Source of the DNA: an uncultured Ignavibacteria bacterium
GTDB lineage: Bacteria > Zixibacteria > MSB-5A5 > UM-FILTER-46-8
Assembly (NCBI GenBank): GCA_964563085.1
Contig: CAZLVS010000009.1
Location: forward strand, 14,400-78,399
DNA: 64,000 nt
Direction of reading: 5' to 3'
Part shown: piece by piece, positions 6,848-35,203 of the stretch
Layout of the letters: each line of letters starts with the position of its first letter
How positions within the stretch are numbered: the first letter of the stretch is position 1
Notes under the pieces: model-generated
Told to the model about the DNA's origin: nothing
The model's input: the letters and a program-made list of their open reading frames with translations, nothing else
Database searches by the model: none
Program-made: the position numbers and the translations under genes

Positions 6848-7348
6848 TTAATCCAGCTTGAAATCGCCGTGTTTTTCGATATGCGCCACCAGTCCGCCAT
6901 CGTTTAGTATCTTTATCATTGCATCCGGAAGCGGCGAAAAGGTGAGTCGATCTCCGGTTGTCAGATTGTTGACCACTCCCTCGGACAGATCGACTGTCAA
7001 CTGATCACCGGCGCTGATTCTATCAGTATCGCACACCAGGACGGGAAGGCCAACATTAATGGCGTTGCGGAAAAATATGCGCGCAAATGATTTCGCCATC
7101 ACCGCGCCGACCCCCGCCAACTTAATGATAGTCGGCGCATGTTCTCTGGATGAACCCAGCCCGAAGTTGTTCCCGCCAACCACGAAATCGCCGGGTTGAA
7201 CATTTTTAGCGAAATCCGGATCGGCATCTTCCAAAACATGTTTTGCCAATTCAGGCAGATTACTTCTGAGATGGAATAACCTTCCGGGAGCGATATGATC
7301 GGTGGAAATATCATCGCCGAATTTATGTGCTTTACCTGTTATTTGCAT
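6848..7348 (-). CDS. leuD: 3-isopropylmalate dehydratase/homoaconitase small subunit (copy 1)
   Basis: GDDISTDHIAPG, NFGLGSSREHA, AKSFARIFFRNAINVG. Confidence 0.92.
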   Translation of the reverse strand: MQITGKAHKFGDDISTDHIAPGRLFHLRSNLPELAKHVLEDADPDFAKNVQPGDFVVGGNNFGLGSSREHAPTIIKLAGVGAVMAKSFARIFFRNAINVGLPVLVCDTDRISAGDQLTVDLSEGVVNNLTTGDRLTFSPLPDAMIKILNDGGLVAHIEKHGDFKLD

Positions 7349-7370
7349 TATTTTTACTCCTGCCTTTTAT

Positions 7371-7545
7371 GGTTTCCGATGGCGTCGGGTTTCTCGCTCG
7401 TTGCACTCGCTCGGAACCCGACCTACGAATTTGTCGGGGATAAGCCCGCCGACCTGCGTTTGATTCAAGTGTCGGGTTTCTCGCTCGTTGCACTCGCTCG
7501 GAACCCGACCTACGGTTTCCAATGGCGTCGGTTTTCGTCGGTAAA
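7371..7545. repeat. Tandem GTAG-tagged REP elements between leuC and leuD
   Basis: Identical 44-bp units at 7384-7427 and 7471-7514 (GTCGGGTTTC...GGAACCCGACCTACG); related copies at 13868, 51193 and 51402. Confidence 0.85.
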
Positions 7546-7555
7546 TCCGTCGCCC

Positions 7556-9025
7556 CTACCGCTTTTTCTTAGCTGTTTTCTTCTTGGCTGCTTTTTTCTT
7601 GGCGGCCTTCTTCTTCGCCTTCTTAACCGCTTTCTTGGCGACTTTTTTCACAGCGCTTTTAGCTTTTTTCTTAGCCGCTTTTTGCTTGGTCGCCGCTGCT
7701 TTTTTGGCAGCTTTTGCTCTTGTGAGTTTCACCGGATCGGGGATCGTCCCCAACGGCTTAAGCGCCCGGCTGAACTCCCGGGGATCCGAAATATAGCCGG
7801 TCAAAGCGCTTGCCGCTACCGTAGCCGGAGATGCGAGATAGATATTCCCTTCGGGATTTCCCATACGACCCCTGAAATTACGGTTCTGAGTTGCGATTAC
7901 ATTTTCGCCATCGCCCAGGATTCCGCCATGAACTCCCACGCAGGGTCCGCATCCGGGAGGTAACATCAATGCGCCGAATTCCATCACGGTCTGCAGGTAA
8001 CCATGCTTCAATAACTCCGTTTCCACCTTTTTGGAACCGGGTACAGCTATGACTCGAACGCCAGGCGCAGGCTTTTTGCCCTTGACTATTCCCGCGAATA
8101 TCGCCCAGTCGGACAGGCGGGAGTTGGTGCAGGTGCCCAGAAAAACCTGATTAATCTTAACATTATCGGCAACCGCCTGTTCGATTTCCCGGGTATTATC
8201 CACTGTATGCGGGTAGGAAACGGTTGGTTTCAACTGGCGAACATCAATATCGATGATTTTCTCATAGTCGGCATCCGGATCGGGATAAATCTCCTGCCAC
8301 TTGCTGCCGCGTTTCCATTTCTTGAGGTAATCCCGGGTTATACTATCAGAAGCGATAAGCCCGGCTTTGGCGCCCGCTTCCACCGCCATATTCGACAGGG
8401 TGAACCGCCCTTCCATATCCATATTATCGATTGTCGGTCCGCCGAATTCCAGAGCCTTGTAGGTTGCGCCGTCCGCGCCGATCATACCGATCAAGTGCAG
8501 TATCAAATCCTTGGGATACACGCCTGTAGGGAATTTTCCGGTTACGTTTACTCGGTAAGTTTCAGGCACCCTGAGCCAGGTCTTCCCCAGCGCCATACCG
8601 ATAGCCACATCGGTGGAACCCATTCCGGTGGAAAACGCGCACAGCGCGCCTCCGGTGCAGGTATGCGAATCAGCGCCGATCAAGAGATCGCCCGGATTGA
8701 TATAATCCTCATTGATTACCGTGTGGCAGATACCGTTGCCGACATCTGAAAGATGCGCGCCGGTTTTGTCGGCGAACTGGCGTAATGTCATGTGGTCATT
8801 CGCCAGCTCCTTGCGCGATGCCGGAGCGGAATGGTCTAAAAACAGGACGGTTTTATCCGGATGAGCGACTTTCTCCAGGTTAAGTTTCTGAAGCTGTTTA
8901 ACCGCCAGCGGACCGGTGCCGTCCTGCACCAGTGCGGCGGTCACGTTAGCGATTACTATTTCGCCGGCGGATACTTCCTTACCGGCATTCATGCCAATTA
9001 TTATTTCAGCAAGGGTTTTACCCAT
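7556..9025 (-). CDS. leuC: 3-isopropylmalate dehydratase/homoaconitase large subunit (copy 1) with C-terminal histone H1-like tail
   Basis: LDH, GICH, GADSHT, LGTCTNSR and PGCGPC cluster ligands, TQNRNFRGRMG; last 53 aa are K/A-rich. Confidence 0.93.
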   Translation of the reverse strand: MGKTLAEIIIGMNAGKEVSAGEIVIANVTAALVQDGTGPLAVKQLQKLNLEKVAHPDKTVLFLDHSAPASRKELANDHMTLRQFADKTGAHLSDVGNGICHTVINEDYINPGDLLIGADSHTCTGGALCAFSTGMGSTDVAIGMALGKTWLRVPETYRVNVTGKFPTGVYPKDLILHLIGMIGADGATYKALEFGGPTIDNMDMEGRFTLSNMAVEAGAKAGLIASDSITRDYLKKWKRGSKWQEIYPDPDADYEKIIDIDVRQLKPTVSYPHTVDNTREIEQAVADNVKINQVFLGTCTNSRLSDWAIFAGIVKGKKPAPGVRVIAVPGSKKVETELLKHGYLQTVMEFGALMLPPGCGPCVGVHGGILGDGENVIATQNRNFRGRMGNPEGNIYLASPATVAASALTGYISDPREFSRALKPLGTIPDPVKLTRAKAAKKAAATKQKAAKKKAKSAVKKVAKKAVKKAKKKAAKKKAAKKKTAKKKR

Positions 9026-9312: not shown

Positions 9313-9330
9313 TCGTGAAAAAGTTCTCAA
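9313..9330. promoter_or_regulatory. Rex/CRP-like operator (distal)
   Basis: TCGTGAA-AAAG-TTCTCAA versus Rex consensus TTGTGAA-N4-TTCACAA (12/14). Confidence 0.5.
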
Positions 9331-9388: not shown

Positions 9389-9406
9389 TTGTGAAAATAT
9401 TCACTA
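9389..9406. promoter_or_regulatory. Rex/CRP-like operator (proximal) upstream of hdrC-like operon
   Basis: TTGTGAA-AATA-TTCACTA (13/14 to Rex consensus; also fits TGTGA-N6-TCACA). Confidence 0.6.
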
Positions 9407-9487
9407 CATTAGACGATGATGTAAACAGGAATTGTTCGCAATAATAGGGCCGGACATTCCTGACCAGCGAAGAAGTAGTATACATAG

Positions 9488-9617
9488 CGTCAGCCCTGGA
9501 GGGCTGACCGCCGGAATTGAAGCGGTAGGACCGGACATTCTTGTCTGACGGATAACGTATTGAAACCGCGAAGATTTTACATAAAACTACCGAAGGACAA
9601 GCCTTCGGCTGCGGATA
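9488..9617. repeat. REP-like hairpins in the leader of the hdr operon
   Basis: GTCAGCCCTGGAGGGCTGAC; GTAGGACCGGACATTCTTGTC; CCGAAGGACAAGCCTTCGG (same hairpin as 35236, 53576, 56478). Confidence 0.7.
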
Positions 9618-9654
9618 AGAAGAAATGTAACTGATATATGAAATCGAGGAAGAA

Positions 9655-10062
9655 ATGTCTCTTTTAATCGCATTACGCACTATTGATGATGAAATGCGGC
9701 GAAAAATTAAGGAGATCAGCGGTCAGGATATCTCCAAATGCTTCCAATGCGGAACATGTTCGGCATCCTGCCCCATGGAGGAACATCTCCAGGCTCCGCC
9801 TCGCCGTATCATGACTTTGATTCAATTCGGTCAATCGGAAGCTCTCGATTTACTCAACACCCCCTGGGTGTGCGCCTCCTGCCACAACTGCATGGTTCGC
9901 TGCCCCCGCGGGATCGATATCACCAAGGTGATGGAAGCTATCCGGTTGTTAAGACTCCGCCAGAATGTTAACCAGATCGAACCGTCTAACCTGCAGCCTG
10001 AGGAGGTCGTTGAACTCCCTCAGATAGCAATGGTTTCCGGTTTCCGCAAAATGACATCGTGA
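9655..10062 (+). CDS. hdrC: Heterodisulfide reductase subunit C-like 2x[4Fe-4S] protein
   Basis: CFQCGTCSASCP and CASCHNCMVRCP. Confidence 0.85.
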   Translation: MSLLIALRTIDDEMRRKIKEISGQDISKCFQCGTCSASCPMEEHLQAPPRRIMTLIQFGQSEALDLLNTPWVCASCHNCMVRCPRGIDITKVMEAIRLLRLRQNVNQIEPSNLQPEEVVELPQIAMVSGFRKMTS

Positions 10063-10069
10063 GGTGAGT

Positions 10070-10960
10070 ATGAAGTTAGGTTATTATCCGGGATGTACAT
10101 TAAAAACAAAAGCGAAAAATCTCGAGGATTCGGCATTAGCCAGCCTGGAGGTTTTAGGGATCGAGGCGACCGAACTGGAACGATGGAATTGCTGCGGCGC
10201 GGTTTATTCGCTGGCTGATGACGATTTGATCCATATCGTAGCTCCGGTTCGCGACCTTATCCGGGCGCAGCAGCAGGGGTATGACACAGTTGTCACACTT
10301 TGTTCGATGTGTTACAACACATTAGCTCGCGCCAACGAGTTGATGAAAAACGATGAGGAAAAACGCAATACTTTGAACGACTTCATGGACGAGGAACCGG
10401 ATTATTTCGGAGATGTGAAAGTGGTTCATTTCCTCAATTTCCTTGAAGACGAAGTCGGATGGGATAAGGTTAAGGAAGCGGTCAAAGTTCCTCTTAACGG
10501 ACTGAAGGTCGCTCCGTATTACGGCTGCACTTTACTGCGTCCCAAGGAGGTCGGTATCGATCATCCCGACAATCCTGTCATGTTCCATAAGTTCCTGAAT
10601 GCATTGGGCGCCGAGGCGGTCGATTTCGACAGCGCTACCGAATGCTGCAGCGCGTATCAGTCGCTGGCTCATCCTGATATCGCATTGAAAGTTTCCTACG
10701 ATATCCTTCAGGATGCAGCCGGAAAAGGCGCGGAAGCGTTGGCTTTAGCCTGCCCTCTTTGCGATTATAACCTGGGACGCAAGCAGGGGAAGGTGCTGGA
10801 GATGTTCGAAAGCGCTAACGAAGTCCCGATTTATTATTTCACGCAATTGATGGCGGTGGCGTTCGGCGTACCGATCGACAAAAACCATTTTGAATTAAAC
10901 CGGGAGAGTTCGGTAGAACTGCTTAAATCAAAAAATCTGCTGAGCGAAGTTCCCGCATAA
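10070..10960 (+). CDS. hdrB: Heterodisulfide reductase subunit B-like CCG-domain protein
   Basis: YYPGC...WNCCG...CSMC and YYGC...ECCS...CPLC; GAGGTG RBS. Confidence 0.88.
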   Translation: MKLGYYPGCTLKTKAKNLEDSALASLEVLGIEATELERWNCCGAVYSLADDDLIHIVAPVRDLIRAQQQGYDTVVTLCSMCYNTLARANELMKNDEEKRNTLNDFMDEEPDYFGDVKVVHFLNFLEDEVGWDKVKEAVKVPLNGLKVAPYYGCTLLRPKEVGIDHPDNPVMFHKFLNALGAEAVDFDSATECCSAYQSLAHPDIALKVSYDILQDAAGKGAEALALACPLCDYNLGRKQGKVLEMFESANEVPIYYFTQLMAVAFGVPIDKNHFELNRESSVELLKSKNLLSEVPA

Positions 10961-11001
10961 AGTCTGAAATATGTAATATTTGATGATAAGAAGAGGTGAA
11001 T

Positions 11002-11832
11002 ATGAGTAAGAGACCATCAGTTGGAAGCACCGGTGAGGATCGGATTTTTAGAAGATCTATCGCAGGAGGAGGAGCTGAGGGAGGAGCCGCCGAAGTGCCG
11101 GTTGAGGAAATGGAAGCCAAGATGATTCCGATTTACATCATGGGCAAACGATACGAAGTTCCGGAAACATTAACCATAATGAAGGCTATGGAATACGCCG
11201 GATTCCAGTATATCCGCGGATGCGGATGCCGCGGCGGCGTTTGCGGCGCCTGCGCAACTGTTTATCGCAAACCCGGCGATTATAAAATCTACACCGGACT
11301 CGCCTGCCAGACTGTTGTCGAGCCGGAGATGTATTTAACGCAATTACCCTTCTACCCGGCGAACCGCGCCATTTATGAATTTAACGAGTTAACCGGAAGA
11401 CCGGAAGAAGTCCATGCTCTTTATCCGGAGCTGTTCCGATGTGTCGCCTGCAACGCCTGCACCAAGGTCTGCCCGATGGATGTGGAAGTCATGGATTATA
11501 TCGCCGCGGTGAAGCGGGGCGATATGAAGGCAGCGGCGGAGATTTCTTTCGACTGTATTCAATGCGGACTCTGCGCCAGCAGATGTATGGGCGAACTCCC
11601 GCAGTATCATATCGGACAGCTTGTCCGCAGGATCAACGGAGCGTTCCTAACTCCGCGCGCCGAACATCTGGCAACCATGGTCGCCAATATCGAAGCCGGG
11701 CGTTACAAAGAATGCCTGGAAAAAGTTAAGGGGCAGGATGCCGATACGCTGAGGAATATTTATCAGGAGCGCGAACTGGAACCTGCCGTTGCGGGTGAAG
11801 ACTGGACTCCGCAGAGTAAAGAGTGTTTATAA
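11002..11832 (+). CDS. Fumarate reductase/succinate dehydrogenase-type Fe-S subunit ([2Fe-2S] + 2x[4Fe-4S])
   Basis: CRGGVCGAC...LAC, CVACNACTKVCP, CIQCGLCASRC; GAGGTG RBS. Confidence 0.82.
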   Translation: MSKRPSVGSTGEDRIFRRSIAGGGAEGGAAEVPVEEMEAKMIPIYIMGKRYEVPETLTIMKAMEYAGFQYIRGCGCRGGVCGACATVYRKPGDYKIYTGLACQTVVEPEMYLTQLPFYPANRAIYEFNELTGRPEEVHALYPELFRCVACNACTKVCPMDVEVMDYIAAVKRGDMKAAAEISFDCIQCGLCASRCMGELPQYHIGQLVRRINGAFLTPRAEHLATMVANIEAGRYKECLEKVKGQDADTLRNIYQERELEPAVAGEDWTPQSKECL

Positions 11833-11867
11833 TCTTAAAGAAAAGAAATTAGTGTGAGGTTTTATAT

Positions 11868-13538
11868 ATGCCGTACCCAGAGGAACTAAAACAGCTTATT
11901 AAGATAGTGGAAAGCACCCGCGAAGAGAGGGTTGCCCGCAAGAGAAAAAACGAGGAAGTCCCTTTCCTGAGTCTCGATGAACGGAAAGAAATGCTTGCTA
12001 ACCATCCCGATGTGAAAGAAGAGGGAAGACGGGAACTGAAGGTCGGTCCCAGCAAAGGATATCGTATCGCCCACGAGGTGTGCGACCTGCTGGAGGCGAA
12101 AAGCCGCGTGGATCCCAATGCGGTTGACCTTTCCAATCCCGATATCGAAACCGATGTGCTGATAATCGGCGGGGGCGGAGCGGGAACTGCGGCGGCGATT
12201 ATGGCTCAGGAACAAGGCGCCAAGGTCACAATCGCCACTAAGTTGCGTCACGGCGACGCCAACACCATGATGGCCGAGGGCGGAATTCAGTCCGCTACCA
12301 AGGGGCATAAGGATTCGCCGTATTACCATTACCTCGACGTGATGGGCGGCGGTCATTTCGTTAACGATCCCGACCTGGTGGAAACACTGGTAACCAAAGC
12401 TCCCAACGCCATCAAGTGGCTGGAAAGCCTGGGGTGCAATTTCTCCAAGTTCCCGGATGGGACTCTTAAGACTATCCATGGAGGCGGGACTTCCCGTAAG
12501 CGTATGCATTATGCCGCCGATATCACCGGCGCGGAAATGATGCGCACCGTCCGCGATGAAGCTCGCAACCGCGTTAAAGATATCCAGGTTGTGGAATTCT
12601 CCCCGGCGGTGGAGCTTCTGCTCAATGAACATGGCAATTCCGCCGGCGCAGTATTGTACAATCTTGACACCGAGGAATACGTGGTAGCCAAGGCGAAATC
12701 TGTAGTGATGGCTACCGGCGGCTGCGGTCGTTTGCATATCCAGGGGTTTATGACCACCAACCATTACGGCGCAACCGCTGACGGTATCGTACTCGGTTAT
12801 CGCGCCGGAGTGAAGATCTGTTTCCTGCATACCGTGCAGTATCACCCCACCGGTATCGTATTCCCGGAGCAGGCGGAAGGAATTTTGATTACCGAGAAAT
12901 TCCGCGGTTCGGGCGCTAACTTAGTCAACGTTGATGGCCAGCAGTTCGTTAACGAACGCGAACCGCGCGATGTGGAAGCCGCCGCTATCATCAAGGAATG
13001 CGTCGGGCAGGGCAAGGGAGTTCCCACTCCCACCGGTAAGCTGGGTATCTGGCTTGATTCGCCGATGATCGATATGCTGGAAGGCGAAGGAACCGTGGAA
13101 CGTGAATTCCCCGGAAAATTCATCCTGTTCAAGCGCTACGGAATCGATATCTCCAAGGAACCGATGTTGATCTATCCCACGCTGCATTATCAGAACGGCG
13201 GACTGGAATTCAAGAACACCGGCGAGACAGCGGTACCGGGTCTGTTCGCAGCCGGAGAGGTCGGCGGAGGTATCCACGGCGAAAATCGTTTGATGGGTAA
13301 TTCGCTTCTGGATATTATGGTTTTCGGAAGGATCGCGGGCGAAACCGCCGCCAGGTACGCTAAGGAAAAAGCGAACGGCAGCAAGCTCTCGCTGGAGCAT
13401 GTTGAGAAATACAACAAAGAGATAGAAGAAGCGGGAGTCGGCGACGGACGCGTAGCCCCGATGATACTCCCCAACTACACCGATGAACGTATCCGCCAAA
13501 GACAACTCACCGCCCATTACGTGGGAACCATAAGGTAG
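11868..13538 (+). CDS. FrdA/SdhA/TfrA-family flavoprotein
   Basis: GGGGAG FAD motif, MAEGG, HGGGTS, QYHPTG, ITE..RG, EPRD, HYQNGG, HGENRLMGNSL. Confidence 0.88.
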   Translation: MPYPEELKQLIKIVESTREERVARKRKNEEVPFLSLDERKEMLANHPDVKEEGRRELKVGPSKGYRIAHEVCDLLEAKSRVDPNAVDLSNPDIETDVLIIGGGGAGTAAAIMAQEQGAKVTIATKLRHGDANTMMAEGGIQSATKGHKDSPYYHYLDVMGGGHFVNDPDLVETLVTKAPNAIKWLESLGCNFSKFPDGTLKTIHGGGTSRKRMHYAADITGAEMMRTVRDEARNRVKDIQVVEFSPAVELLLNEHGNSAGAVLYNLDTEEYVVAKAKSVVMATGGCGRLHIQGFMTTNHYGATADGIVLGYRAGVKICFLHTVQYHPTGIVFPEQAEGILITEKFRGSGANLVNVDGQQFVNEREPRDVEAAAIIKECVGQGKGVPTPTGKLGIWLDSPMIDMLEGEGTVEREFPGKFILFKRYGIDISKEPMLIYPTLHYQNGGLEFKNTGETAVPGLFAAGEVGGGIHGENRLMGNSLLDIMVFGRIAGETAARYAKEKANGSKLSLEHVEKYNKEIEEAGVGDGRVAPMILPNYTDERIRQRQLTAHYVGTIR

Positions 13539-13561: not shown

Positions 13562-13592
13562 AAAACCGCCGCAATGTTGCGGCGGTTTTTTT
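13562..13592 (+). terminator. Rho-independent terminator (probably bidirectional)
   Basis: AAAACCGCCGCAA-TG-TTGCGGCGGTTTT perfect stem followed by T-run, after the flavoprotein stop. Confidence 0.9.
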
Positions 13593-13607
13593 ATTATGAA
13601 TAGCGCT

Positions 13608-14054
13608 GTCGGGTCGCCGTACCCGACGGCAGTCATTGCCCGATTTCATCGGGGCGCAGCGAAGAAGCAATCTAATTCCCCTCTTAAGAGGGGTGGATTC
13701 ATCCCGCGGTATGCGGGATGAAGACGGGGTGTGTTATATTTTTTCCCGCAGGTCAGCGCTCCAGCGCTGACGGTTCTCCGCCGACAAGAATGTCGGCGCT
13801 ACCGGTAGGCAGCAGTCAACATCCGGTAGGATTGACATTCTTGTCCAGCATTAAATCTATAAAATTGTCGGGTTTCTGCGCTTCGTTCCGGAACCCGACC
13901 CGCTTCGCCGAATAGTAGGCGGGACATTCCTGTCCCGCTCATACTTGACGCCTTCTGTCAGACGGGGGCGTCTGACCGCACCAAAGAGCGCCCTCGGCAA
14001 GCTTCGGGCTCGCAATGACTTCTATTTCCGTCATTGTCCCGATTTCATCGGGGA
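13608..14054. repeat. Dense mosaic REP cassette (about ten different hairpins)
   Basis: GTCGGGTCGCCGTACCCGAC, CCCGATTTCATCGGG, CCCCTCTTAAGAGGGG, TTCATCCCGC..GCGGGATGAA, GTCAGCGCTCCAGCGCTGAC, CGCCGACAAGAATGTCGGCG, GCGGGACATTCCTGTCCCGC, GTCAGACGGGGGCGTCTGAC, ...CTCGCAATGAC. Confidence 0.85.
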
Positions 14055-14082
14055 GCTTCGGCAGGGCTTTGACCTATTTTCA

Positions 14083-22287: not shown

Positions 22288-23880
22288 ATGGAATTCGATC
22301 AAAACCAACAGACTATAGAACTAAGAGACTACTGGCGCATTTTAGTAAAGAGGAAATGGTTCCTTATATTTCCTTTCGTTATCACAGCTTTGCTTGTGAC
22401 AGCGGGCAGCTACTATTTGCAGCCCGCCTATGAATCATCCACCACTATTCTGGTTGCGGAATCTCATCTTCTGTCGCCGACATTCTCCAGGATGATGCCT
22501 GAGAGCGAACCCCGCATGAGCCGTGAGCAAAGGCAGGAACGGATTAACACCATCCGTAACCGAATAGTCTCCACCGATTATTTGTCGCAGCTTATTGAAA
22601 GGTTAGACCTGCCGGTGCCGCAGTCGATCAAAGAGGCTGTTATCGAGCTTCACAATAAGTTTCCGGAAATATCCGAACTGGAATTAGCCAGAAAGATGCA
22701 GGTGGAATCACTCCGGCGTACTCTCAGCGTCAGTTTCAATGGAAGCAACCTGGTGCAGATAACGGCAACCGCATCCTCACCGCAGCTTGCGGCGGAAAAA
22801 GCGCGCACGCTGGCGGACATCTTTATAGAAAACTCATTGGCAAGCGAGTTAACCGGTGTTGAAGGCGCTTTGGTCTTTTCCGATGAGATGCTGGAGACCT
22901 ATCGCAAGCGGCTGGAGGAGTCCGAGGCAGAGCTTCGCAGGTTCGAGCAGGAAATGCTGCGAAGAAATATGGACCAGGACTCCACCATGATCAGAAATAT
23001 CGATCAGATTAATTCCGCAATCGATGCTGCTAATATCGAGATTAAATCAATTTCCAAAACTATCGGTACGTTGCGGGATGAACTCGAAAAGTACGGGATT
23101 GACCAAGCTCGAATCGAATACTCCAGTAATTTGGCTTCCCTGAAATTCGACGCCTTAGAAAGCATATCGGGATTATCCAGGCTTCTGGTCCGCTATTCAT
23201 GGCGGGATGCCCAGGTTGTGCGGATAAGCGAGCGTTCCAGGGAATATCTCCAGGAGATCGAAAACGAAATTGAAAGATTGGTGACCAAGCAGTTCCCCGA
23301 AAGGGAGCCTGTGATTCAGCAGAAGCTGATCGATTATGAGTTCCTTTCGATAAAGCTTTCTTTCCTTGAGGAGAAACGAAGAATGCTTTACGAAGCGATT
23401 AGAAATGTCCAAAGCCAGATAGCCGAGAGCCCCGCTTTGACGCAGCGACATGAGGTGTTACAGCGCAAGGTGGAGGAAAATCGCAGGATATACGAACTTT
23501 TCTCCGAGCAGTTGACCGGTTCGCAAATAAACCAAGCGGCTACCCGCGCGGAAGCGGAAACGAAATTCAAAATTATCGAGCCTGCTGCGATCCCCTTAAA
23601 GCCGGTCAGCCCTAATCGAGTGAAATTGGCGGCGGTTGGCGCCGTACTGGGATTGGCTCTGGGCCTGGGTATAATTCTGCTGTTGGAATTATGGGACAAT
23701 AGTTTCCATAAAGTGGAGGAAGTTGAATCGTATCTGGGCTTGAAAGTTGTCGGGACTGTCCCCAAGCTCAAATTACCGCTCTCTCAAAAAGGATCGGGAA
23801 GGATTTGGATTATTATGGGGATTACCGTTTCGACCGCCCTGGTCGCATTCATTATTTATTTAAGCAGAACGGTTCAATAG
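22288..23880 (+). CDS. Polysaccharide co-polymerase/chain-length regulator (Wzc N-terminal part, GumC-like)
   Basis: LRDYWRIL, TM1, coiled-coil periplasmic region, IIEPAAIPLKPVSPN, TM2. Confidence 0.87.
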   Translation: MEFDQNQQTIELRDYWRILVKRKWFLIFPFVITALLVTAGSYYLQPAYESSTTILVAESHLLSPTFSRMMPESEPRMSREQRQERINTIRNRIVSTDYLSQLIERLDLPVPQSIKEAVIELHNKFPEISELELARKMQVESLRRTLSVSFNGSNLVQITATASSPQLAAEKARTLADIFIENSLASELTGVEGALVFSDEMLETYRKRLEESEAELRRFEQEMLRRNMDQDSTMIRNIDQINSAIDAANIEIKSISKTIGTLRDELEKYGIDQARIEYSSNLASLKFDALESISGLSRLLVRYSWRDAQVVRISERSREYLQEIENEIERLVTKQFPEREPVIQQKLIDYEFLSIKLSFLEEKRRMLYEAIRNVQSQIAESPALTQRHEVLQRKVEENRRIYELFSEQLTGSQINQAATRAEAETKFKIIEPAAIPLKPVSPNRVKLAAVGAVLGLALGLGIILLLELWDNSFHKVEEVESYLGLKVVGTVPKLKLPLSQKGSGRIWIIMGITVSTALVAFIIYLSRTVQ

Positions 23881-23892
23881 GAGGAAGAGGCG

Positions 23893-25032
23893 ATGGAGTT
23901 CATCGGATTTGAAACCTGCATCAAGGCAAAAGAGAATGAATACCATTTAAAAACAGCCAGTGATATCCAGCAGAATCAGCTCAACAGCGTTATGATAAAA
24001 AACGGCATGGTTCAGACTGTTAACGAATCTATCCCTCTTGACGGCACCGTCGAGGCCGATATCAAAGGGGAGACGCGCCGAGTTCATAACGAACGAGTGG
24101 AGATCATATACTTGCTGTCGGAATTTTCCCAAAATATGCCGCTCTCTGTCGATAATGCCGTCTGGCGGGACCGTCTTGGTATGGGATTTTTCAACTCGGG
24201 TATGTATGAGGAGGCTATCGGCGAGTTTCAAAAGGCTGTTAATCGCGATCCGCTTTATTCCCAAGCCCTAAACCATCTGGGCAAATCATATTTCAATTCC
24301 GGCGATTGCCGTCGGGCTATCGAATATCTGGAATTGGCTGTGAAGCAAAAGCCGGATTTCGCTGATTTCCACCTGGATCTTGCCGAGGCTTATCTCAAAG
24401 TCGGCAGATGCGAAGATTCATTTACTTCCGCCGAGAGGGCCCTGATAATCAATTCTTTTTATGGAAGGGCATATTACCTGCGAGCATTGGCGCTTCTGAT
24501 GAAAGCAGTTTATCTGGATAATACTGAGCCGGAAGAGGGATTAACGCAGAGGATACAAAATGATATCAGCAGCGCTGTCAGTATCGATTCCTCGCTTAAA
24601 CCCGAGGAATATGAGACGGCATGGCAGCGCCTCGAAAACGGAGATTACAAAGATGCTCTGGCGATACTGGAAAGCAACGCTAAAATGCCCGGATCTCAGA
24701 AGTTCTCAACCGCCAAGTTGAAAACCTATATCAAACTGGCGATGTCTCTTGATAAGCTTAGTTATGATGAGGTTTTCGATTATATCGCGTATCTTGAGGA
24801 AAAGCTGGATAAAAATCCCCAGTTTGCCGACTTGCATTACGAACTGGGCGCAGCTCATTCCATTTTGGGCAATATATTCGCCAGCCGGGCATCGAAATAT
24901 TATAAAAGAGCGCTCGAGGTGAATCCGAATTTTTCAAAGGCGCGGAGCAGCCTGAAGATAACCGAGAATTTTGACCAAGGCACAGAAAGCCTTCTAAAGA
25001 CAATATTAAACAGCAGGGATGCGGGATGCTGA
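23893..25032 (+). CDS. Tetratricopeptide-repeat protein
   Basis: Repeated TPRs (LGMGFF..GMYEEAI.EFQKA, ALNHLG..YF, ADFHLDLA, ADLHYELG); GGAGG RBS. Confidence 0.8.
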   Translation: MEFIGFETCIKAKENEYHLKTASDIQQNQLNSVMIKNGMVQTVNESIPLDGTVEADIKGETRRVHNERVEIIYLLSEFSQNMPLSVDNAVWRDRLGMGFFNSGMYEEAIGEFQKAVNRDPLYSQALNHLGKSYFNSGDCRRAIEYLELAVKQKPDFADFHLDLAEAYLKVGRCEDSFTSAERALIINSFYGRAYYLRALALLMKAVYLDNTEPEEGLTQRIQNDISSAVSIDSSLKPEEYETAWQRLENGDYKDALAILESNAKMPGSQKFSTAKLKTYIKLAMSLDKLSYDEVFDYIAYLEEKLDKNPQFADLHYELGAAHSILGNIFASRASKYYKRALEVNPNFSKARSSLKITENFDQGTESLLKTILNSRDAGC

Positions 25033-25778
25033 AAAAGAAAAGAGCCGGATCGATAATAGAATACTTCGATCGGGAATCCCCCGAAGCTATAGAGATGCGG
25101 CGGGTGTTCAATTATTTGATATCTAAGTCCGATAAGAAAAATAACATCTTAAACAATTTTGCCATCACCAGCGCTACCCTGGGAGAGGGCAAATCGACCA
25201 TCGCCAGTCTTTTGGCAATATCCATCGCTGATCACAGCAAATCTAACGTCCTTTTGGTTGATGTCGATTTCCGCCGACCCAGACTGCACGATATATTTTC
25301 AATCAAACTCGCCGGAGGCATATCGGACATACTTTCAGGAGAAAGTATCGATAACTTCATCCTGAAAAGCGCCTCTTTTGAAAATCTAAAGATCATTACC
25401 GCGGGAAAGAGGTTGTCGAATCCGATCAGTTTACTTGATACCGGCAAATTAAAATCGTTTTTTGATAAGATGAGGTATCATTTCGACTATATTATTCTGG
25501 ATTGCCCTCCGGTAATCCCGGTATCCGACATAATGGATATCGCTCCGGAAATAGATGGGGTTTTGATGGTGGTCAAAGCGGGTCAGACACCTAAAGACGT
25601 CGCTAAGCGCGCCGTAAATTTGCTAAAGAACTACGGAATAAATATACTCGGCTGTATTCTCAACGATACCGAAAAGGTGCTGCCTTATTACTACGATTAC
25701 AGCTACTATAGATATTCCTCCCGGCAGGACAAACCATCAAGGCAAAAGTCCCCCCGAAAACAAAAAGCAACCGCCTGA
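25026..25778 (+). CDS. CpsD/CapB-type bacterial tyrosine kinase
   Basis: Walker A GEGKST, DVDFRRP, Walker B ILDCPP, C-terminal Tyr cluster YYYDYSYYRY. Confidence 0.9.
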   Translation: MLKKKRAGSIIEYFDRESPEAIEMRRVFNYLISKSDKKNNILNNFAITSATLGEGKSTIASLLAISIADHSKSNVLLVDVDFRRPRLHDIFSIKLAGGISDILSGESIDNFILKSASFENLKIITAGKRLSNPISLLDTGKLKSFFDKMRYHFDYIILDCPPVIPVSDIMDIAPEIDGVLMVVKAGQTPKDVAKRAVNLLKNYGINILGCILNDTEKVLPYYYDYSYYRYSSRQDKPSRQKSPRKQKATA

Positions 25779-25789
25779 CGGCTGCCTCC

Positions 25790-26020
25790 TCATTGCGCGG
25801 AGCGCAGCGCCGAAGCAATCCATTTACCCTAACCGCAGGTTACGGGCGTACCCCCCGCGAAATGGACTGCACAGGAATTCATCAAGCTGTTAAAATAGGC
25901 TAATGTGGTCGGCGGACGTCCCCGTCCACCGACTGAGCGGCATGCTCTGACTATATATAAGCACGCATGGCCAAGGCTGCGCCTTGACCACGCCGCCCGC
26001 GTAAAACACAATCCGACTAA
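25790..26020. repeat. REP-like palindrome cassette
   Basis: CATTGCG...GAAGCAATCC, TGGTCGGCGGACGTCCCCGTCCACCGAC, GCATGGCCAAGGCTGCGCCTTGACCACGC (cf. 6711, 51065, 51147). Confidence 0.8.
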
Positions 26021-26037
26021 CGTCTAACGACTAATGA

Positions 26038-27459
26038 CTATTTCAACAATGTCATCCGTTTGGTGAGTACATTGCCTCCGGAGGATAATCTATAGAAATA
26101 GATTCCCGAAGGATAATCAGCGGCATTCCAGGTAACAGTATAGTGCCCTGATTGCTGGTGGTTGTCCACCAATGCTGCCACCTTCTGTCCCATCAAGTTG
26201 AATACTTCAAGGTTTACATCACCAGGCTCGGATATGACATAGGCTATATTGGTGGAAGCGTTGAACGGATTCGGATAATTACTGTTTAAAGCGTATTCGC
26301 TTGGCGTTGCGTCATCTTCATAAAATCCGCCCTCAAGCAGCCATTCGGACGCGCCATCTGAATTGCGAGCGCCTGTTACGGTGAATTCGAAAAAGGCGGA
26401 GTCGCAGGCGTCAGGTTTTTCCCCCGAATATGAGATATACGTATAAGTACCGGTTGGCGCATATACAGGAACGCTTTGATTGAGATGGGCGGAAAGCGTC
26501 TGAGCCGGAGCCAGACTAATGTTGGAGAAATTCCACAATTCGTAGAAATCTCCGAGATAGATAATGCCGACCCAAACATCGGTAATCAAGGTATCATCAT
26601 TTGGATTGCCTATATGACCTGTTAAGCCGAAGGTTCCGCCTTGAGGAACCATGATCGGATCGTCATCCGGCACCATATCAACATCGCTGCACATAATCCC
26701 CTCTACTCCTGAATATCCATACCAGTTGCCGTTGTCATGATCGCCGGTAAACAGCAGGTTGTTGCAGTGCGAGAGAGTCCAACTCCAATCACCGTACGGA
26801 ACCGTGATCGTCTCCACATAGTTGCCATCGAAGTCGTAAACGGGAATGGTGGTGCTGTAAAAAGCTTCCTCGAAGAACAGGTGGATACCGTTGGTAGCGA
26901 TCGGGTAATCGTAATTATCGCCGTTAATTGTAAACTGCCCGACTTGTTCCCCGGTATCGATATCAAACATCCATACGGTTTCGGAGTAATGTTCGTAGAT
27001 TATGCCTTCCGAGAAACAAACTTCGCTATTGGTATCATTGAACATATCGGAAAACACGGTTGTGGTTGCTCCGGTCTCGGGATCGATAATGTATAAATCC
27101 GTACCGAACGGCTTAAGGTAAACATCGCCATTGTACATCCAGCAAGTACGCACCGAACTCACGCCGATCGTTACGGAGTTGACTAGGTTGCCGTTTATGT
27201 CGTAGGTTTCACAACCGGCGTTGTAGCCGATCCCGTAATACAGGTTGTTCTCCTCGTCAAAACAGATAGACTGGGCTTGACTGCTGAAGAAATGTTCAAA
27301 CTGAATCTCCAGACTTGGTGAGTATTGGGTAATCGCAGATTGCTGTTTCGGCGCATTACCGGAATTTACATCGCTGTCGTTCAAGGCGATATCCTGAAGC
27401 GCAAAGGAACTCGATGCAATAAAAGCGGTAATAAACAAAGCGAGAAGTAATTTTTTCAT
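26038..27459 (-). CDS. Secreted protein (probable beta-propeller) with Ig-like domain and T9SS-type CTD
   Basis: Signal peptide MKKLLLALF...; short beta repeats; PNPFNASTNI...SGIYFYRL...KRMTLLK. Confidence 0.75.
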   Translation of the reverse strand: MKKLLLALFITAFIASSSFALQDIALNDSDVNSGNAPKQQSAITQYSPSLEIQFEHFFSSQAQSICFDEENNLYYGIGYNAGCETYDINGNLVNSVTIGVSSVRTCWMYNGDVYLKPFGTDLYIIDPETGATTTVFSDMFNDTNSEVCFSEGIIYEHYSETVWMFDIDTGEQVGQFTINGDNYDYPIATNGIHLFFEEAFYSTTIPVYDFDGNYVETITVPYGDWSWTLSHCNNLLFTGDHDNGNWYGYSGVEGIMCSDVDMVPDDDPIMVPQGGTFGLTGHIGNPNDDTLITDVWVGIIYLGDFYELWNFSNISLAPAQTLSAHLNQSVPVYAPTGTYTYISYSGEKPDACDSAFFEFTVTGARNSDGASEWLLEGGFYEDDATPSEYALNSNYPNPFNASTNIAYVISEPGDVNLEVFNLMGQKVAALVDNHQQSGHYTVTWNAADYPSGIYFYRLSSGGNVLTKRMTLLK

Positions 27460-27852
27460 TTTGAACCTCATAAATAATTCGTTTGTAGATGGGTGAGATA
27501 GGGGCAACCGCTTGCTTATTGTCTAATACCTCCTTTCCTTGATAGGTTGATGAAACGGATTTATCGATTCACAACAAATAAAAAATCGATGTAATGAATG
27601 TTTATTCAATAATATAAGCGAGTCCGCTATTTGCATGATTAGCAGCCGATAACCGGGATGCTCGGCAGCAAGGACCGGTGACATCCATCTGGCGTAGAAA
27701 AACGGAGAAATACATTTTTATATAAACTAAATTACAAAATAAATGTTAAATCGTCAAGCAATAAATACCCGAGACTTAATAACTAACTTACTGCTTTTTT
27801 TACCAAATTTGTATTTGCTTTTAATTACTTACTCAACTTATTTTTATAGGTT

Positions 27853-28560
27853 ATGGAATTTGTGGAAAGAGAGGAAATTGAGCGCAATTACGGACAACTG
27901 AAGGATGATATCGACAGCATCTGCACTCCACTCGGGATCAACGGCGAGAATGTAGTTATTATTGCGGTGACCAAAACATTCCCGCCGGAGGTTGTACGGT
28001 CCGCATTGGAAGCGGGAATTACTCATATAGGCGAAAATCGAATACAGGAAGCCGAAAATAAGGCGGATACGGTTCGACGGCTAAATGGGAGTTTCCACAT
28101 GATAGGTCACCTTCAATCCAATAAGGCGAAAAAAGCGGTTGAGATCTTCGATATGATTCAGTCGGTGGATAGTGTGAAGATAGCCGGAAAGATATCCGAA
28201 GAAGCTCAAAAAAGGAGTAAAAGGATGGAGGTCTTGCTCCAGGTAAATTGCTCGGGTGAAAAAAGCAAATCGGGATTCGAACCATCGGTGATAACCGAAG
28301 CCGCTGATAAAATTAAAGCATTGCCCGGAGTTGAGATAAAAGGTATAATGACAATCGGTCCGTTTGTGGATGATGAGAGTATAATCAGCAGGGATTTTCG
28401 ACTTACGAAGAAACTTTATGATGACATCGGAAGTAGAAATCCCGATATTGATATGAAGTATCTGTCGATGGGAATGAGCGCCGATTATCACATCGCTTTG
28501 CGAGAAGGCGCTAATATGATTCGGGTAGGTTCGGTAATTTTCGGTTCCCGTACGGCATAA
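27853..28560 (+). CDS. yggS: PLP homeostasis protein YggS/PLPBP
   Basis: AVTKT, GENRIQE, HMIGHLQSNK, LSMGMSADY, IRVGS.IFG. Confidence 0.95.
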   Translation: MEFVEREEIERNYGQLKDDIDSICTPLGINGENVVIIAVTKTFPPEVVRSALEAGITHIGENRIQEAENKADTVRRLNGSFHMIGHLQSNKAKKAVEIFDMIQSVDSVKIAGKISEEAQKRSKRMEVLLQVNCSGEKSKSGFEPSVITEAADKIKALPGVEIKGIMTIGPFVDDESIISRDFRLTKKLYDDIGSRNPDIDMKYLSMGMSADYHIALREGANMIRVGSVIFGSRTA

Positions 28561-28611
28561 ACCGGCGCTAATTCAGGTCGAAAAATGAAATAAATTCGAA
28601 AGGTATTTATT

Positions 28612-29172
28612 GTGACGTTAAATCCAATCGATATACGGCATCAGCAATTTAAGAAATCCTTGCGGGGTTTCGATCCGGTCGAAGTCGAGCATTATCTTAA
28701 TCAAGTTGCTGATAGAATTGAGGAAATACTTCAGGAACACGAGGAGTTGAAAATATCCCAGAGGGAGATTAAAGCGAAATTATCAAGCTATACCGATACC
28801 GAATCCGCTATAAGCGAAACCATGGTAGCCGCGCAAAAAAACGCTGAAAAGACCGTGGAAAATGCCAACAAGGAAGCCGGTTTGATTATCAAGCAAGCGC
28901 GTTCGGATGCCGACCGAATAATAAAGCAGGCCTCTGATAGGGCAGTCAAAATCCGTCAGTATATACATGAACTCGAGATGGAAAAAGCCTCCTTGGTCGG
29001 AGAAATGAAATCTATTATAAAAGCTCATACGCAGTTAATTGAACAGATTGTACGCGAGAGTGATAAGGAGGTGCCGGAGATAACTCCGAAATCGCAACTT
29101 AGCGATGATGATATCGATAGAATAGCCGAAGAATACGAAATACGCTCGGGAGCGGATAACCAGCAAGAATAA
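28612..29172 (+). CDS. divIVA: DivIVA-domain protein
   Basis: LNPIDIRHQQFKKSLRGFDPVEV followed by coiled coil. Confidence 0.88.
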   Translation: MTLNPIDIRHQQFKKSLRGFDPVEVEHYLNQVADRIEEILQEHEELKISQREIKAKLSSYTDTESAISETMVAAQKNAEKTVENANKEAGLIIKQARSDADRIIKQASDRAVKIRQYIHELEMEKASLVGEMKSIIKAHTQLIEQIVRESDKEVPEITPKSQLSDDDIDRIAEEYEIRSGADNQQE

Positions 29173-29195
29173 GACAATCATCGAAGAGGTATATT

Positions 29196-30023
29196 TTGGA
29201 CGGAATTTACGAACAAACTCAGGAAGCAGTCGAATTCATTAAAACGAAAACCGGGTTTGATCCCGATGTCGGTATTATCTTGGGTACCGGATTGGGGGCG
29301 GTTGCCGAAGCGATTGATAGGGAAGCGGTTATAGATTACGAGAATATTCCCAATTTTCCGGTTTCAACGGTTGAAAGCCATTCCGGGAGGCTTATTCTCG
29401 GTACTTTATCCGGAAAAAACGTGATTGCTATGCAGGGAAGATTTCATCTTTACGAAGGTTATTCGGCGCAGCAAGTGACTTTTCCGGTGAGGGTGATGAA
29501 AGCGTTGGGGATCAAGCTGCTTTTTGTTTCCAACGCCTGCGGCGGACTAAATCCGCAATTTAAAACCGGCGATATAATGATTATAACCGATCATATCAAT
29601 TTTCAGGGCAAAAATCCCCTGGTGGGCGTAAATGACGACAGATTGGGTCCTCGTTTTCCCGACATGTACAATGTTTACGATAAAGACCTGGTTAACTTAA
29701 TGTATGATACCGCCATTGAAAACGGCATAGGAGTTCAAAAGGGAGTATACCTGTCCGTGTTGGGTCCGAATTTGGAAACGGCGGCGGAGTTCCGGGCGCT
29801 TCGTACACTCGGCGCCGATGTCGTTGGTATGTCCACGATTCCGGAGGTGATTGCTGCCAGACACTCCGGCTTGAAAGTGATGGGATTATCCATCATAACC
29901 GACATGGGTCTTCCCGACGCTATGGAGCCGATCTCGTTGGAATCAGTACTGGCTGCCGCTAAGGAAACGGAGCCGATGATGAAACTTTTAGTTACGAAAA
30001 CATTTGAAAAGCTTGAGATATAA
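29196..30023 (+). CDS. punA: Purine-nucleoside phosphorylase (trimeric type)
   Basis: ILGTGLG, MQGRFHLYEGY, GPNLETAAE, VGMSTIPEV. Confidence 0.93.
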   Translation: MDGIYEQTQEAVEFIKTKTGFDPDVGIILGTGLGAVAEAIDREAVIDYENIPNFPVSTVESHSGRLILGTLSGKNVIAMQGRFHLYEGYSAQQVTFPVRVMKALGIKLLFVSNACGGLNPQFKTGDIMIITDHINFQGKNPLVGVNDDRLGPRFPDMYNVYDKDLVNLMYDTAIENGIGVQKGVYLSVLGPNLETAAEFRALRTLGADVVGMSTIPEVIAARHSGLKVMGLSIITDMGLPDAMEPISLESVLAAAKETEPMMKLLVTKTFEKLEI

Positions 30024-30032
30024 ATCGCTATT

Positions 30033-33000
30033 ATGTTTAGAGAAATAAGCTCAGAATTTAATTATCCGGAAGCCGAACAAAAGGTAAACGAATATTGGGA
30101 TAAATATAATGTGTTTAATGAATCTCTCGATCGCCGTCGGGGCTGTCCCGAATTCGTATTTTACGAAGGACCGCCGACAGCTAACGGACTACCGGGGATC
30201 CATCATGCCATGGCTCGCATCGTAAAGGATACCATTTGCCGTTACAAGACCATGAAGGGCTTTCGCGTGGAAAGAAAGGCGGGCTGGGATACTCAGGGGC
30301 TTCCGGTTGAACTGGAAGTGGAAAAACGGCTTGGAATTTCCATCAAAGAAAACATTGAAGAGTTCGGGATTGAGAATTTCAACAAAGAATGCCGCGAGTC
30401 TGTTTTTAGATATAAGAAGGAATGGGATGAATTCACGCGCAGGATCGGATTCTGGCTCGATCTCGATGATGCTTACGTAACCTACACCAACGAATACATA
30501 GAATCGGTATGGTGGGCGTTAGCTCGTTTTCACCGCGAAGGTTATCTCTATCAGGGTCACAAGATACTCCCCTGGTGTCCCCGATGCGGCACGGCGCTTT
30601 CTTCGCATGAAGTAGCGCTGGGATATGAGACAGTCGAGGACCCATCGGTTTTTGTTCTCATGGAAATAATTGACAAGCCGGGTGTTTTTTTCCTGGTCTG
30701 GACAACGACTCCCTGGACATTGATATCAAACGTAGCCTTAGCGGTGCATCCCGACTACAAATATGTGGAGGTGGAATCGCGGGGAAATCATTTCATTCTG
30801 GAGCGCACAAGGGCTCACTCAATATTCGGCAGTGACATCAATATCGTAACGGAGTATACCGGCGCCGAGTTGATGGGACTTCATTACAAGCCGTTGTTCG
30901 AATTCATTAAATCCGACAGGAAATCTCATTATGTGGTTACCGCCGATTTCGTCACCACCGAAGAAGGTACCGGAATTGTGCATATTGCACCGGCATTCGG
31001 CGCCGATGACTACGAGCTTTCGGTAAAATACGACCTTCCGGTAGTACAGGCTGTCGACGAAAAGGGTAAGTTTATCCCCGAGGTGACGTCCTGGGCGGGC
31101 AGATTCGTTAAGGACGCCGATCCCGAAATAGTCGAAGACATCAGGAAGCGCAGTCTGCTGTTCAGATCGGAGACCTATTCTCATACCTATCCCTTCTGCT
31201 GGCGATGCGATACACCTTTGTTATATTATGCGAGGCGAAGCTGGTTTATACGCACCACCGGTTTTAAGGATAAGATGATTGAAAACAACAAACAGATAAA
31301 CTGGCAGCCTCCGGAGCTAAGGGATGGACGGTTCGGGGAATGGTTGGAGAATAATATAGATTGGGCTCTGTCCCGTGAACGTTTCTGGGGAACCCCTTTG
31401 CCGATCTGGGTATGTAAAAACTGCGGTAAGGAGCAATCAGTAGGGAGTATCGAGGAACTCAAGGAGCTGGGCGAAAACGTACCCGATGATATCGAGTTAC
31501 ATCGTCCTTATGTAGATCGTGTCGTTATCACCTGTCCCGAATGCGGCGGCGATATGCGCCGCACCCATGAAGTTATCGACGCCTGGTTCGATTCCGGTTC
31601 CATGCCGTTTGCCCAGTATCATTATCCATTCGAGAATAAGGAGAAGTTCGAAAGCAGGTTTCCGGCTGATTTTATCGCCGAGGGGATCGATCAAACCCGC
31701 GGTTGGTTTTATACATTACTGGCAATATCGACTTTCCTGTTTGGCAAATCATCCTATAAGAATATCGTGGTAAACGAGTTGATACTTGACAAGGACGGTC
31801 ATAAGATGAGCAAGTCCAGGGGAAATGTAGTTGATCCCCGTCGGGTTTTATCGGAGATGGGCGCCGATGCCACCCGTTGGTATATGGTGACCACCTCGCA
31901 GGTTTGGCTGCCGACCAAATTCGATATCAATGGCGTCGGAGAGGTTGCTAAGAAGTTTCTCTCAACTCTTAAAAACAGCTATTCATTTTTTGCGCTGTAT
32001 GCAAGTATCGATAAGTTTAATCCTTCCGATGTTAAAGAATCGGAATTGGAACCCACAGTTATCGATAAATGGCTGAAATCGAGACTGATGACGCTGGTTC
32101 GCCAGGTTGACAATCATTATGACAGGTTTGAGATAACCAGAGCTGCCAGATTGATTCAGAATTTCGTTATAGAGGATTTATCCAACTGGTATATCCGTCG
32201 TTGTCGACGAAGATATTGGGGATCGGAACCGACCAAAGATAAAACCACCGCTTATTATTATCTCTGGGACGCTCTGCTGACCACGTGCAAGTTAGCCGCT
32301 CCGGCAGCGCCATTTCTGACCGAGCAAATTTTCTTGAATCTGGTTGAGCCCCTCAAGGACAATAGCAAGATATCGATTCATTTGGAGGATTTCCCGGAAT
32401 CGGATAGTTCGAAGATTGATGCCAAGCTGGAATCGCTGATGGAGAAGGTCAAGGATATTGTCAGTTTAGGTCTTGCGGCGCGTAAGAAAAGCAAAATCAA
32501 AGTGCGGCAGCCCCTATCAAGAATTTTGGTGAAACTCTCCAATACGAAGGGAGACGAGGATTTTTCGCCTCTGCTCAGCCAGATAAAAGAGGAATTGAAT
32601 ATTAAGCAGGTGGAATTCACGGATAACTTCGATTCACTTTCTATATTCGAAGTTAAGCCGAATTTCAGGAGTTTAGGTCCCAAGTTCGGGAGGAAAGTTA
32701 ACCAGGTTTCCCGGGTACTGCAGGATTTATCACCGCAGCAAGCTGCACAATTCAAAGCCGAAGGGTCGGTAAACATCGATCTTGACGGGAAGGAGGTTAC
32801 CGTTAGCGCGGAGGATGTTGATTTTCTAACCAGATACTCCGGCGAATATGAAGTACTGCAGGAAGGTGAGACCGCAATCGCGCTTGAAACCGTCGTAACC
32901 GACGAATTGCGCGACGAAGGTTTTGCCCGGGAAATAGTGAACAAAGTGCAGAACATGCGTAAGACAGCGGATTATAATGTTACTGATAAAATAAGGATTC

Positions 33001-33173: not shown

Positions 33174-33187
33174 TACGGAGTTGCTAA

Positions 33188-33562
33188 ATGAACAAACGCG
33201 ATTTGGAGAAGTTTGAGAAACTGCTTTTAGAAAAGCGGAAACAGCTTCTCAAGGAGCTGGGATTGCTCAAGGAGTTTTCTTCCGATACTCAGAAAGATAG
33301 CTCGGGCGATCTCTCAAGCCATGCTTATCACATGGCTGATCTGGGAACTGATGCTCAGGAACGGGAAAAGTCTTTCTTGCTCGCTTCCAAATCGGGGCGG
33401 CTGTTGTATCACATTGATGAAGCGCTAAGGAGAATTAGAGACAACGTATATGGAAAGTGCGTGGCTTGCGGAGAAGAGATAGCTCACGCCCGCCTTGAGG
33501 TGGTTCCTCATGCCAGAATGTGTATTAAATGCAAGGAAAAGGAAGAACAGACCAAGAGCTGA
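33188..33562 (+). CDS. dksA: TraR/DksA C4 zinc-finger protein
   Basis: HMADLGTD, YGKCVACGEEI..ARL...PHARMCIKC. Confidence 0.88.
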   Translation: MNKRDLEKFEKLLLEKRKQLLKELGLLKEFSSDTQKDSSGDLSSHAYHMADLGTDAQEREKSFLLASKSGRLLYHIDEALRRIRDNVYGKCVACGEEIAHARLEVVPHARMCIKCKEKEEQTKS

Positions 33563-35125: not shown

Positions 35126-35203
35126 GTCAAGTTGCTTGTAGTCTTGACATCTCGAAGCGGTGCGGCGGGTTAAATAATGCAGATGGATACAAAATATGTT
35201 TAT

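Follow-up and report, generated by a model that had tools for sequence, protein, structure and literature searches.

A soluble HdrCB-FeS-flavoprotein operon of an uncultured sulfate reducer as a candidate DsrC-dithiol:fumarate reductase

The window analysed here, a stretch of 64,000 nucleotides from an uncultured bacterium of the Zixibacteria lineage MSB-5A5/UM-FILTER-46-8 (GCA_964563085.1, contig CAZLVS010000009.1, positions 14,400-78,399), carries four open reading frames on the plus strand at 9655-13538 in the order hdrC-hdrB-FeS-flavoprotein with no anchor gene among them. The locus raises the question from which donor an anchor-less enzyme resembling fumarate reductase receives its electrons. 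Based on sequence comparison the operon is an orthologue of FrdABEF of Syntrophobacter fumaroxidans, which is named but uncharacterised and thus known by name, not by mechanism. Which donor feeds this anchor-less complex has been a question ever since the genome of S. fumaroxidans was studied.

The operon presumably encodes a soluble DsrC-dithiol:fumarate reductase serving as an electron sink of sulfate reducers, a reading to which we assign a probability of roughly 0.55 and for which co-occurrence points to the donor. Reduced DsrC would transfer two electrons to both non-cubane clusters of HdrB and depart as the disulfide. The electrons would then pass via the HdrC clusters and the two [4Fe-4S] and the [2Fe-2S] clusters of the FeS subunit to a non-covalently bound flavin adenine dinucleotide (FAD), which would reduce fumarate to succinate. 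Fumarate could be derived from the environment, aspartase or fumarase, and HdrA/Flx-type complexes or the DsrMK module could return DsrC to its reduced form. The cassette would represent the bacterial counterpart of the methanogen thiol:fumarate reductase (Tfr), a protein dithiol replacing coenzyme M (CoM) and coenzyme B (CoB). From the co-occurrence of the four proteins we infer that they assemble into one complex; a complex prediction for the FeS subunit and HdrC gave a score of 0.00, which carries no evidence either way.

The distribution of the cassette was analysed in 251 genomes of the host phylum, mostly metagenome-assembled genomes that are related and therefore not independent, its presence being scored by the flavoprotein alone. 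A flavoprotein orthologue was detected in 57 and dsrA in 91 of these genomes, the flavoprotein occurring in 57/91 dsrA-positive and 0/160 dsrA-negative ones. This pattern covers eight families, including genera with both states. It does not reflect a general signal of anaerobes, since another HdrB is encoded in 96 of the dsrA-negative genomes. According to a wider search dsrA is present in 35 of 38 genomes with the four-gene cassette. Of these genomes 24 belong to other phyla, to groups in which only a minority carry Dsr, and 22 of them have dsrA; the background rate of dsrA was measured within the host phylum. The three cassette genomes lacking dsrA all possess a two-Cys dsrC, mostly adjoining dsrT or dsrM. 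Relatives clustered with HdrA, in contrast, were accompanied by dsrA in 2/12 genomes, and DsrC was not found in the other ten. Mere linkage to the dsr cluster was rejected as the cause of the co-occurrence, as both loci lie far apart in single-contig genomes (for example G084 and G150). That the cassette is found only together with the sulfate-reduction machinery suggests that DsrC supplies the electrons, and the thiol/disulfide substrate, unknown to the first-pass annotation, thereby gains a clear candidate. New contributions of this analysis are the strict association with Dsr, the contrast in DsrC content between cassette genomes and HdrA-clustered relatives, and the Rex boxes described below.

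The host genome, which is 96% complete, encodes Sat, AprBA, QmoAB, QmoC, DsrABDNL, a two-Cys DsrC, DsrT and DsrMKJOP (named by motifs and BLAST) and furthermore aspartase, fumarase and FlxAB homologues. On its contig C19 the qmoAB genes are located inside a sat-apr-dsr cluster (8550-31101), while qmoC lies apart at C5 111622-112323 behind a Rex-type box; many genomes of the host phylum show this separation of qmoC from qmoAB.

Upstream of hdrC two candidate Rex-type operators were detected (Table 1), the Rex consensus being TTGTGAA-W4-TTCACAA (PMC2883068). The proximal box is one of seven sites in the genome with at most one mismatch, about six being expected by chance. As the genome count is close to chance level, it is the conservation across loci that counts as evidence: a Rex-type box lies within 400 bp upstream of hdrC in 23/45 related loci, mostly of the host's phylum, as against 0.05 expected. 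These boxes recur although the divergent neighbour gene differs between loci, and in several of them two boxes are spaced about 76 bp apart, as in the window. The host has a rex gene with its own perfect Rex box, and a further Rex-type box is found before qmoC. At high levels of reduced nicotinamide adenine dinucleotide (NADH) Rex lets go of its targets, which fits a role of the cassette as an electron sink, presumably in the over-reduced cell. A scan for sigma-70 promoters revealed nothing exceeding chance.

The orthologue was reached by an HdrB-based search via Desulfoferrobacter suflitae to S. fumaroxidans MPOB, where the cassette is located near the chromosome end (CP000478.1, ~4.98 Mb). 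Its genes (Sfum_4092-4095; A0LQQ6-A0LQQ8), assigned by position, product names and lengths, are the same as in the window in kind, order and length (135/296/264/555 aa), and all four subunits share 56-66% identity and the cysteine sets with those of the window, the flavoproteins also having the ANTMMAEGG motif in common. Both organisms possess Dsr and a separate membrane-bound succinate dehydrogenase (SdhABC in S. fumaroxidans), and both fall into one flavoprotein clade (support 97/98) and one HdrB clade (95/95), which also hold some HdrA-clustered relatives. In S. fumaroxidans, however, the substrate loop contains Phe, and no Rex box was found upstream. FrdABEF has never been purified, and DsrC was once mentioned as a possible link (PMC5947623, PMC8691401).

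That fumarate is the substrate and that the enzyme works in the reductive direction appears very likely from what is known of related families. The flavoprotein motif ANTMMAEGG has Asn in place of the FAD-binding His of FrdA/SdhA, while His326, Thr342, Glu343, Arg367, His440 and Arg474 align with the dicarboxylate site of FrdA and a Glu is found at the position of FrdA Glu49, so that an intact dicarboxylate site without the covalent-FAD His, as noted in the first-pass annotation, was borne out by alignment. The non-covalent FAD argues for the reductive direction, as enzymes without covalent FAD fail to oxidise succinate (PMC2680327). The same direction is indicated by the fumarate induction of the orthologue, which is more abundant on fumarate (PMC5947623, PMC8691401), and by the potentials (+30 mV, compared with disulfides at around -140 mV or below). 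The structural model of the flavoprotein matches FrdA/SdhA cores (template modelling score ~0.6); this match leaves a conserved N-terminal extension of about 90 residues unexplained. The C-terminal helical domain is missing (no PF02910 match), a feature which, like the extension, was overlooked in the first reading.

In HdrB all ten Cys that would coordinate a pair of non-cubane [4Fe-4S] clusters are retained, in almost the same places as in methanogen HdrB, in keeping with a thiol-reactive site. The two 4-Cys motifs that had been described in the Fe-S subunit are indeed present, closely spaced as in a short ferredoxin-type dicluster and following a variable N-terminus of about 35 residues; this subunit resembles SdhB/FrdB only faintly, its fold and spacing not being SdhB-like, and a fold search with its model yielded partial ferredoxin-domain matches only. 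No transmembrane segment (maximum 19-residue hydropathy 1.34) and no twin-arginine translocation (Tat) motif were detected in any of the four subunits.

With TfrAB of methanogens the cassette shares solubility, non-covalent FAD, the ten CCG cysteines, an Fe-S wire and a fumarate-reducing flavoprotein, Tfr being the best NCBIfam match. The proposal of a thiol:fumarate reductase stands as the best functional reading, but the flavoprotein is probably no TfrA orthologue: it scores 340 bits against a cut-off of 718 (Methanospirillum TfrA, 763), lacks PF02910 and differs at both termini. TfrB is an SdhB-type Fe-S protein fused to two CCG domains, whereas in the window the Fe-S protein (31 bits versus 385) and the CCG domains of HdrB are encoded by separate genes and an additional HdrC is present. 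CoM and CoB are unlikely electron donors of the cassette.

Several observations weigh against DsrC as the donor. QmoA (53/57 flavoprotein genomes) is nearly as tightly associated as dsrA, so that the distribution names the sulfate-reduction machinery rather than DsrC itself, and the genomes counted are kin and mostly metagenome-assembled. Where relatives are clustered with HdrA and DsrC is missing, this module has to receive its electrons by another route. The redox potential of DsrC is not known (PMC10861901), ten-Cys CCG proteins also occur in quinone-linked enzymes such as SdhE (PMC2754724, PMC2680327) and FrdABEF is formed on sulfate too, with no succinate accumulating (PMC5947623). Furthermore, a Phe shared by the substrate loops of FrdA and the S. 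fumaroxidans orthologue is replaced by Gly in the window flavoprotein. In favour of DsrC, its interaction with Flx-HdrABC is documented for Desulfovibrio (Ferreira 2023, as cited in PMC10920352). Given the co-occurrence, DsrC remains the donor that we consider somewhat better supported than all others together.

HdrC might instead find its docking partner in an HdrA-type flavoprotein encoded elsewhere (QmoA/QmoB or the HdrA on contig C26), the cassette forming the high-potential arm of a bifurcating complex with no free thiol. This appears unlikely, yet it survives best among the alternatives: besides the tight association with QmoA, closely related HdrC/HdrB are found beside HdrA in Ilyobacter, at locus L109 and in Dehalococcoidia, direct wiring has been proposed for a cluster of tubeworm symbionts (PMC6315080), QmoAB-HdrBC complexes are on record (PMC10504309) and in genome G201 the cassette adjoins qmoAB, one gene away from a qmo-sat-apr-dsr cluster. 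However, the presence of QmoC in 56/57 flavoprotein genomes means that QmoAB is already partnered, and the HdrA on C26 has its own HdrCB and HdrD. In 8/10 good-quality cassette genomes no HdrA match except QmoA was obtained, and a pure wire would have no need of ten conserved HdrB cysteines. An obligatory HdrA in trans was rejected on the strength of these eight genomes, and HdrBC as a substitute for QmoC because QmoC is present. The absence of HdrA, MvhD and an anchor claimed in the first-pass annotation holds for the operon but not for the genome, which encodes an HdrA-MvhD-HdrD cluster on C26 and a membrane SdhCAB on C68; a pairing of the cassette with the C68 anchor was rejected since this anchor has its own SdhAB. 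The C26 cluster (23606-35625, L081) comprises korDABC-hdrA-mvhD-hdrD-hdrA' and divergent hdrCB near sucCD and mdh. Both of its hdrA genes carry an in-frame TGA, probably for selenocysteine, and it recalls the Kor-Hdr cluster of tubeworm symbionts without the FeS-flavoprotein pair.

FrdABEF has been published as a menaquinone-linked enzyme of type E (PMC3570798), and the window operon could accordingly encode a (methyl)menaquinol:fumarate reductase in which HdrB oxidises quinol as an SdhE-like monotopic anchor. Type E succinate:quinone oxidoreductases (SdhABEF, Sulfolobales) and the methylmenaquinol:fumarate reductase (MFR; SdhABE, Wolinella/Campylobacter) likewise have a ten-Cys CCG subunit, a second [4Fe-4S] for the [3Fe-4S] cluster and no transmembrane anchor, and their set of [2Fe-2S] and two [4Fe-4S] motifs is present in the FeS subunit. 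The MFR of W. succinogenes also combines non-covalent FAD with a ten-Cys SdhE, HdrB obtains 152 bits with the MFR SdhE model, and quinone-linked complexes exist in the host. This score, however, is far below the cut-off (500), and HdrB groups with HdrB of HdrA-Flx clusters (in a tree without any SdhE). The flavoprotein falls outside SdhA/FrdA (259 versus 826 and 238 versus 1100 bits against SdhA-type cut-offs), the FeS subunit is not SdhB-like, HdrC is present though MFR has none, and neither the covalent His of Sulfolobales nor the Tat signal of MFR is found. A quinol enzyme, moreover, would not be restricted to Dsr genomes, and a membrane SdhCAB is already there. The type-E-like, quinone-linked function considered in the first-pass annotation therefore seems improbable.

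About equally improbable is a thiol:fumarate reductase whose donor is some small thiol or a dithiol protein other than DsrC, or one reducing another enoate or dicarboxylate. The HdrA-clustered relatives, which keep HdrB though without DsrC, and the Gly in the substrate loop would agree with it, but it leaves the 57/57 co-occurrence with Dsr unexplained, and Phe is retained in the S. fumaroxidans orthologue, which does respond to fumarate.

It is slightly less probable still that the cassette runs oxidatively, passing succinate electrons to DsrC (disulfide or trisulfide) or the Qmo/Apr branch in sulfate respiration. The restriction to sulfate reducers and the occurrence of FrdABEF on sulfate without succinate accumulation would be consistent with this, and reversibility had been considered. 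However, apart from the non-covalent FAD and the fumarate induction, electrons would have to climb from +30 mV to the potential of a disulfide (-143 mV for CoM-S-S-CoB), although neither a membrane component nor a bifurcating flavin belongs to the operon. In cocultures with methanogens, moreover, which depend on succinate oxidation, no more than a few subunits of FrdABEF were detected (PMC5947623).

An L-aspartate oxidase or dehydrogenase can practically be dismissed: one tree places the family as the sister group of NadB (SH-like approximate likelihood ratio test, SH-aLRT, 96), but the flavoprotein has HGGGT instead of the Glu motif REGGH, stays below every NadB cut-off (274 versus 453 bits), lacks nadA/nadC among the recurring neighbours of the best 80 loci and coexists with a true NadB on C27. 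The separate NadB and SdhCAB indicate that it is neither NadB nor the complex II of the host.

Flavoprotein relatives were detected at over 500 genome loci (a lower bound), the best 80 of which (73-86% identical) were examined. Of these, 52 contain the full four-gene cassette with HdrCB adjoining the FeS-flavoprotein pair, which speaks against an anchor encoded elsewhere independently of HdrBC; three more are cut within the cassette, HdrA clusters account for 15 (Syntrophales-like ones that include sucCD, and those of Dehalococcoidia), one lies beside a fumarase subunit and nine are cut short. The phylogeny proposed in the first-pass annotation places the flavoprotein in a clade of its own (SH-aLRT 99) outside TfrA, SdhA/FrdA and NadB; its deep placement is unsure, a sister relation to TfrA not being rejected (approximately unbiased test, p = 0.07-0.08). 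Neighbours of relatives that agree with fumarate as the substrate include aspartase (Ilyobacter), sucCD, a fumarase subunit (L033) and mdh/kor. In distant relatives the FeS-flavoprotein pair occurs with aspartase-HdrBCA-Flx (Ilyobacter polytropus), with korDABC-hdrA-mvhD-hdrCB (L109) or with a NuoF-like gene. In Ilyobacter (56% identical) and L109 the same FeS-then-flavoprotein module stands by hdrC/hdrB, and bacterial "tfrAB" were reported in korABCD-flx-hdrABC clusters of tubeworm symbionts by Rubin-Blum et al. 2019 (PMC6315080), a likeness drawn from the cluster description. The window cassette differs from these clusters in its association with Dsr and in lacking the HdrA and Flx/MvhD that they carry. 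These arrangements suggest a fumarate reductase that is soluble and modular, its electron inputs being exchangeable.

At about even odds, the cassette would be the first enzyme to couple oxidation of the DsrC dithiol to an organic acceptor. Fumarate reduction would then run via the carrier of sulfite reduction in sulfate reducers from seven or more phyla, possibly with menaquinol and DsrMKJOP upstream, and the enzyme would have arisen by loss of HdrA from a modular soluble fumarate reductase that elsewhere uses NuoF-like, Flx-HdrA or Kor-HdrA inputs. The list of DsrC-using enzymes is still mostly conjecture, and the distribution gives a specific prediction for the donor that can be checked in two cultured organisms. 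The labels "type E" and "Tfr" may hide a separate, very conserved and widespread family with exchangeable electron inputs. If the proposal is true, many uncultured sulfate reducers possess a second outlet for electrons from DsrC, a point of relevance to their growth without sulfate.

The gene set and the closing terminator described in the first-pass annotation were recovered by open reading frames, motifs and a shuffle test (Table 1).

Table 1. Operon and associated elements in the window (alternative starts are separated by a slash).
Feature	Position	Strand	Characteristics
HdrC-like 2x[4Fe-4S] subunit (FrdF)	9655..10062	+	135 aa, two CxxCxxCxxxC; 56% identity to S. fumaroxidans FrdF
HdrB-like subunit (FrdE)	10064/10070..10960	+	296-298 aa, two CCG domains, ten Cys; 62% identity to FrdE
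Fe-S subunit (FrdB)	10996/11002..11832	+	[2Fe-2S] and two 4-Cys motifs at residues 149-159 and 187-197; 66% identity to FrdB
Flavoprotein (FrdA)	11868..13538	+	556 aa, FAD_binding_2; 58% identity to S. fumaroxidans FrdA
Intrinsic terminator	13562..13599	+	hairpin 13562-13589 plus T run; z = -4.2, 0/200 shuffles
Candidate Rex-type operator, distal	9313..9330		2 mismatches to TTGTGAA-N4-TTCACAA
Candidate Rex-type operator, proximal	9389..9406		1 mismatch to TTGTGAA-N4-TTCACAA

Among the more distant relatives, a NuoF-like gene together with the same module (L110 9366-12891; L190 5255-8858; L191 5240-8806) occurs in many Proteobacteria and constitutes a candidate three-subunit NADH:fumarate reductase, its hosts including cultured Pseudoroseomonas and, judged by the layout of open reading frames, Cupriavidus metallidurans CH34. 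The plasmid operon aspA-hdrBCA-flxDCBA-FeS-flavoprotein of I. polytropus (L189 2873-13614) would allow bifurcation from NADH to ferredoxin and fumarate to be tested in a cultured organism. A divergent flavoprotein-FeS pair at L113 10001-12357 has no adjoining electron-input gene, and its cluster includes a Prochlorococcus protein. Genome G300 harbours a second paralogue (53% identical) within an MvhD-MvhG-MvhA hydrogenase cluster (L100 107-6191).

Four records titled Ignavibacteria (L001, L002, L003, L012) have gene coordinates identical to those of GTDB genomes of the host phylum (for example L001 = G138), and their NCBI titles are probably misassigned. In the window the operon is flanked on both sides by intergenic regions with short palindromic repeat-like elements (9430-9620 and 13600-14060). 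The divergent neighbour on the minus strand (6848-9025) is a LeuC/LeuD-type dehydratase pair whose large subunit has a long, Lys/Ala-rich, histone-like tail.

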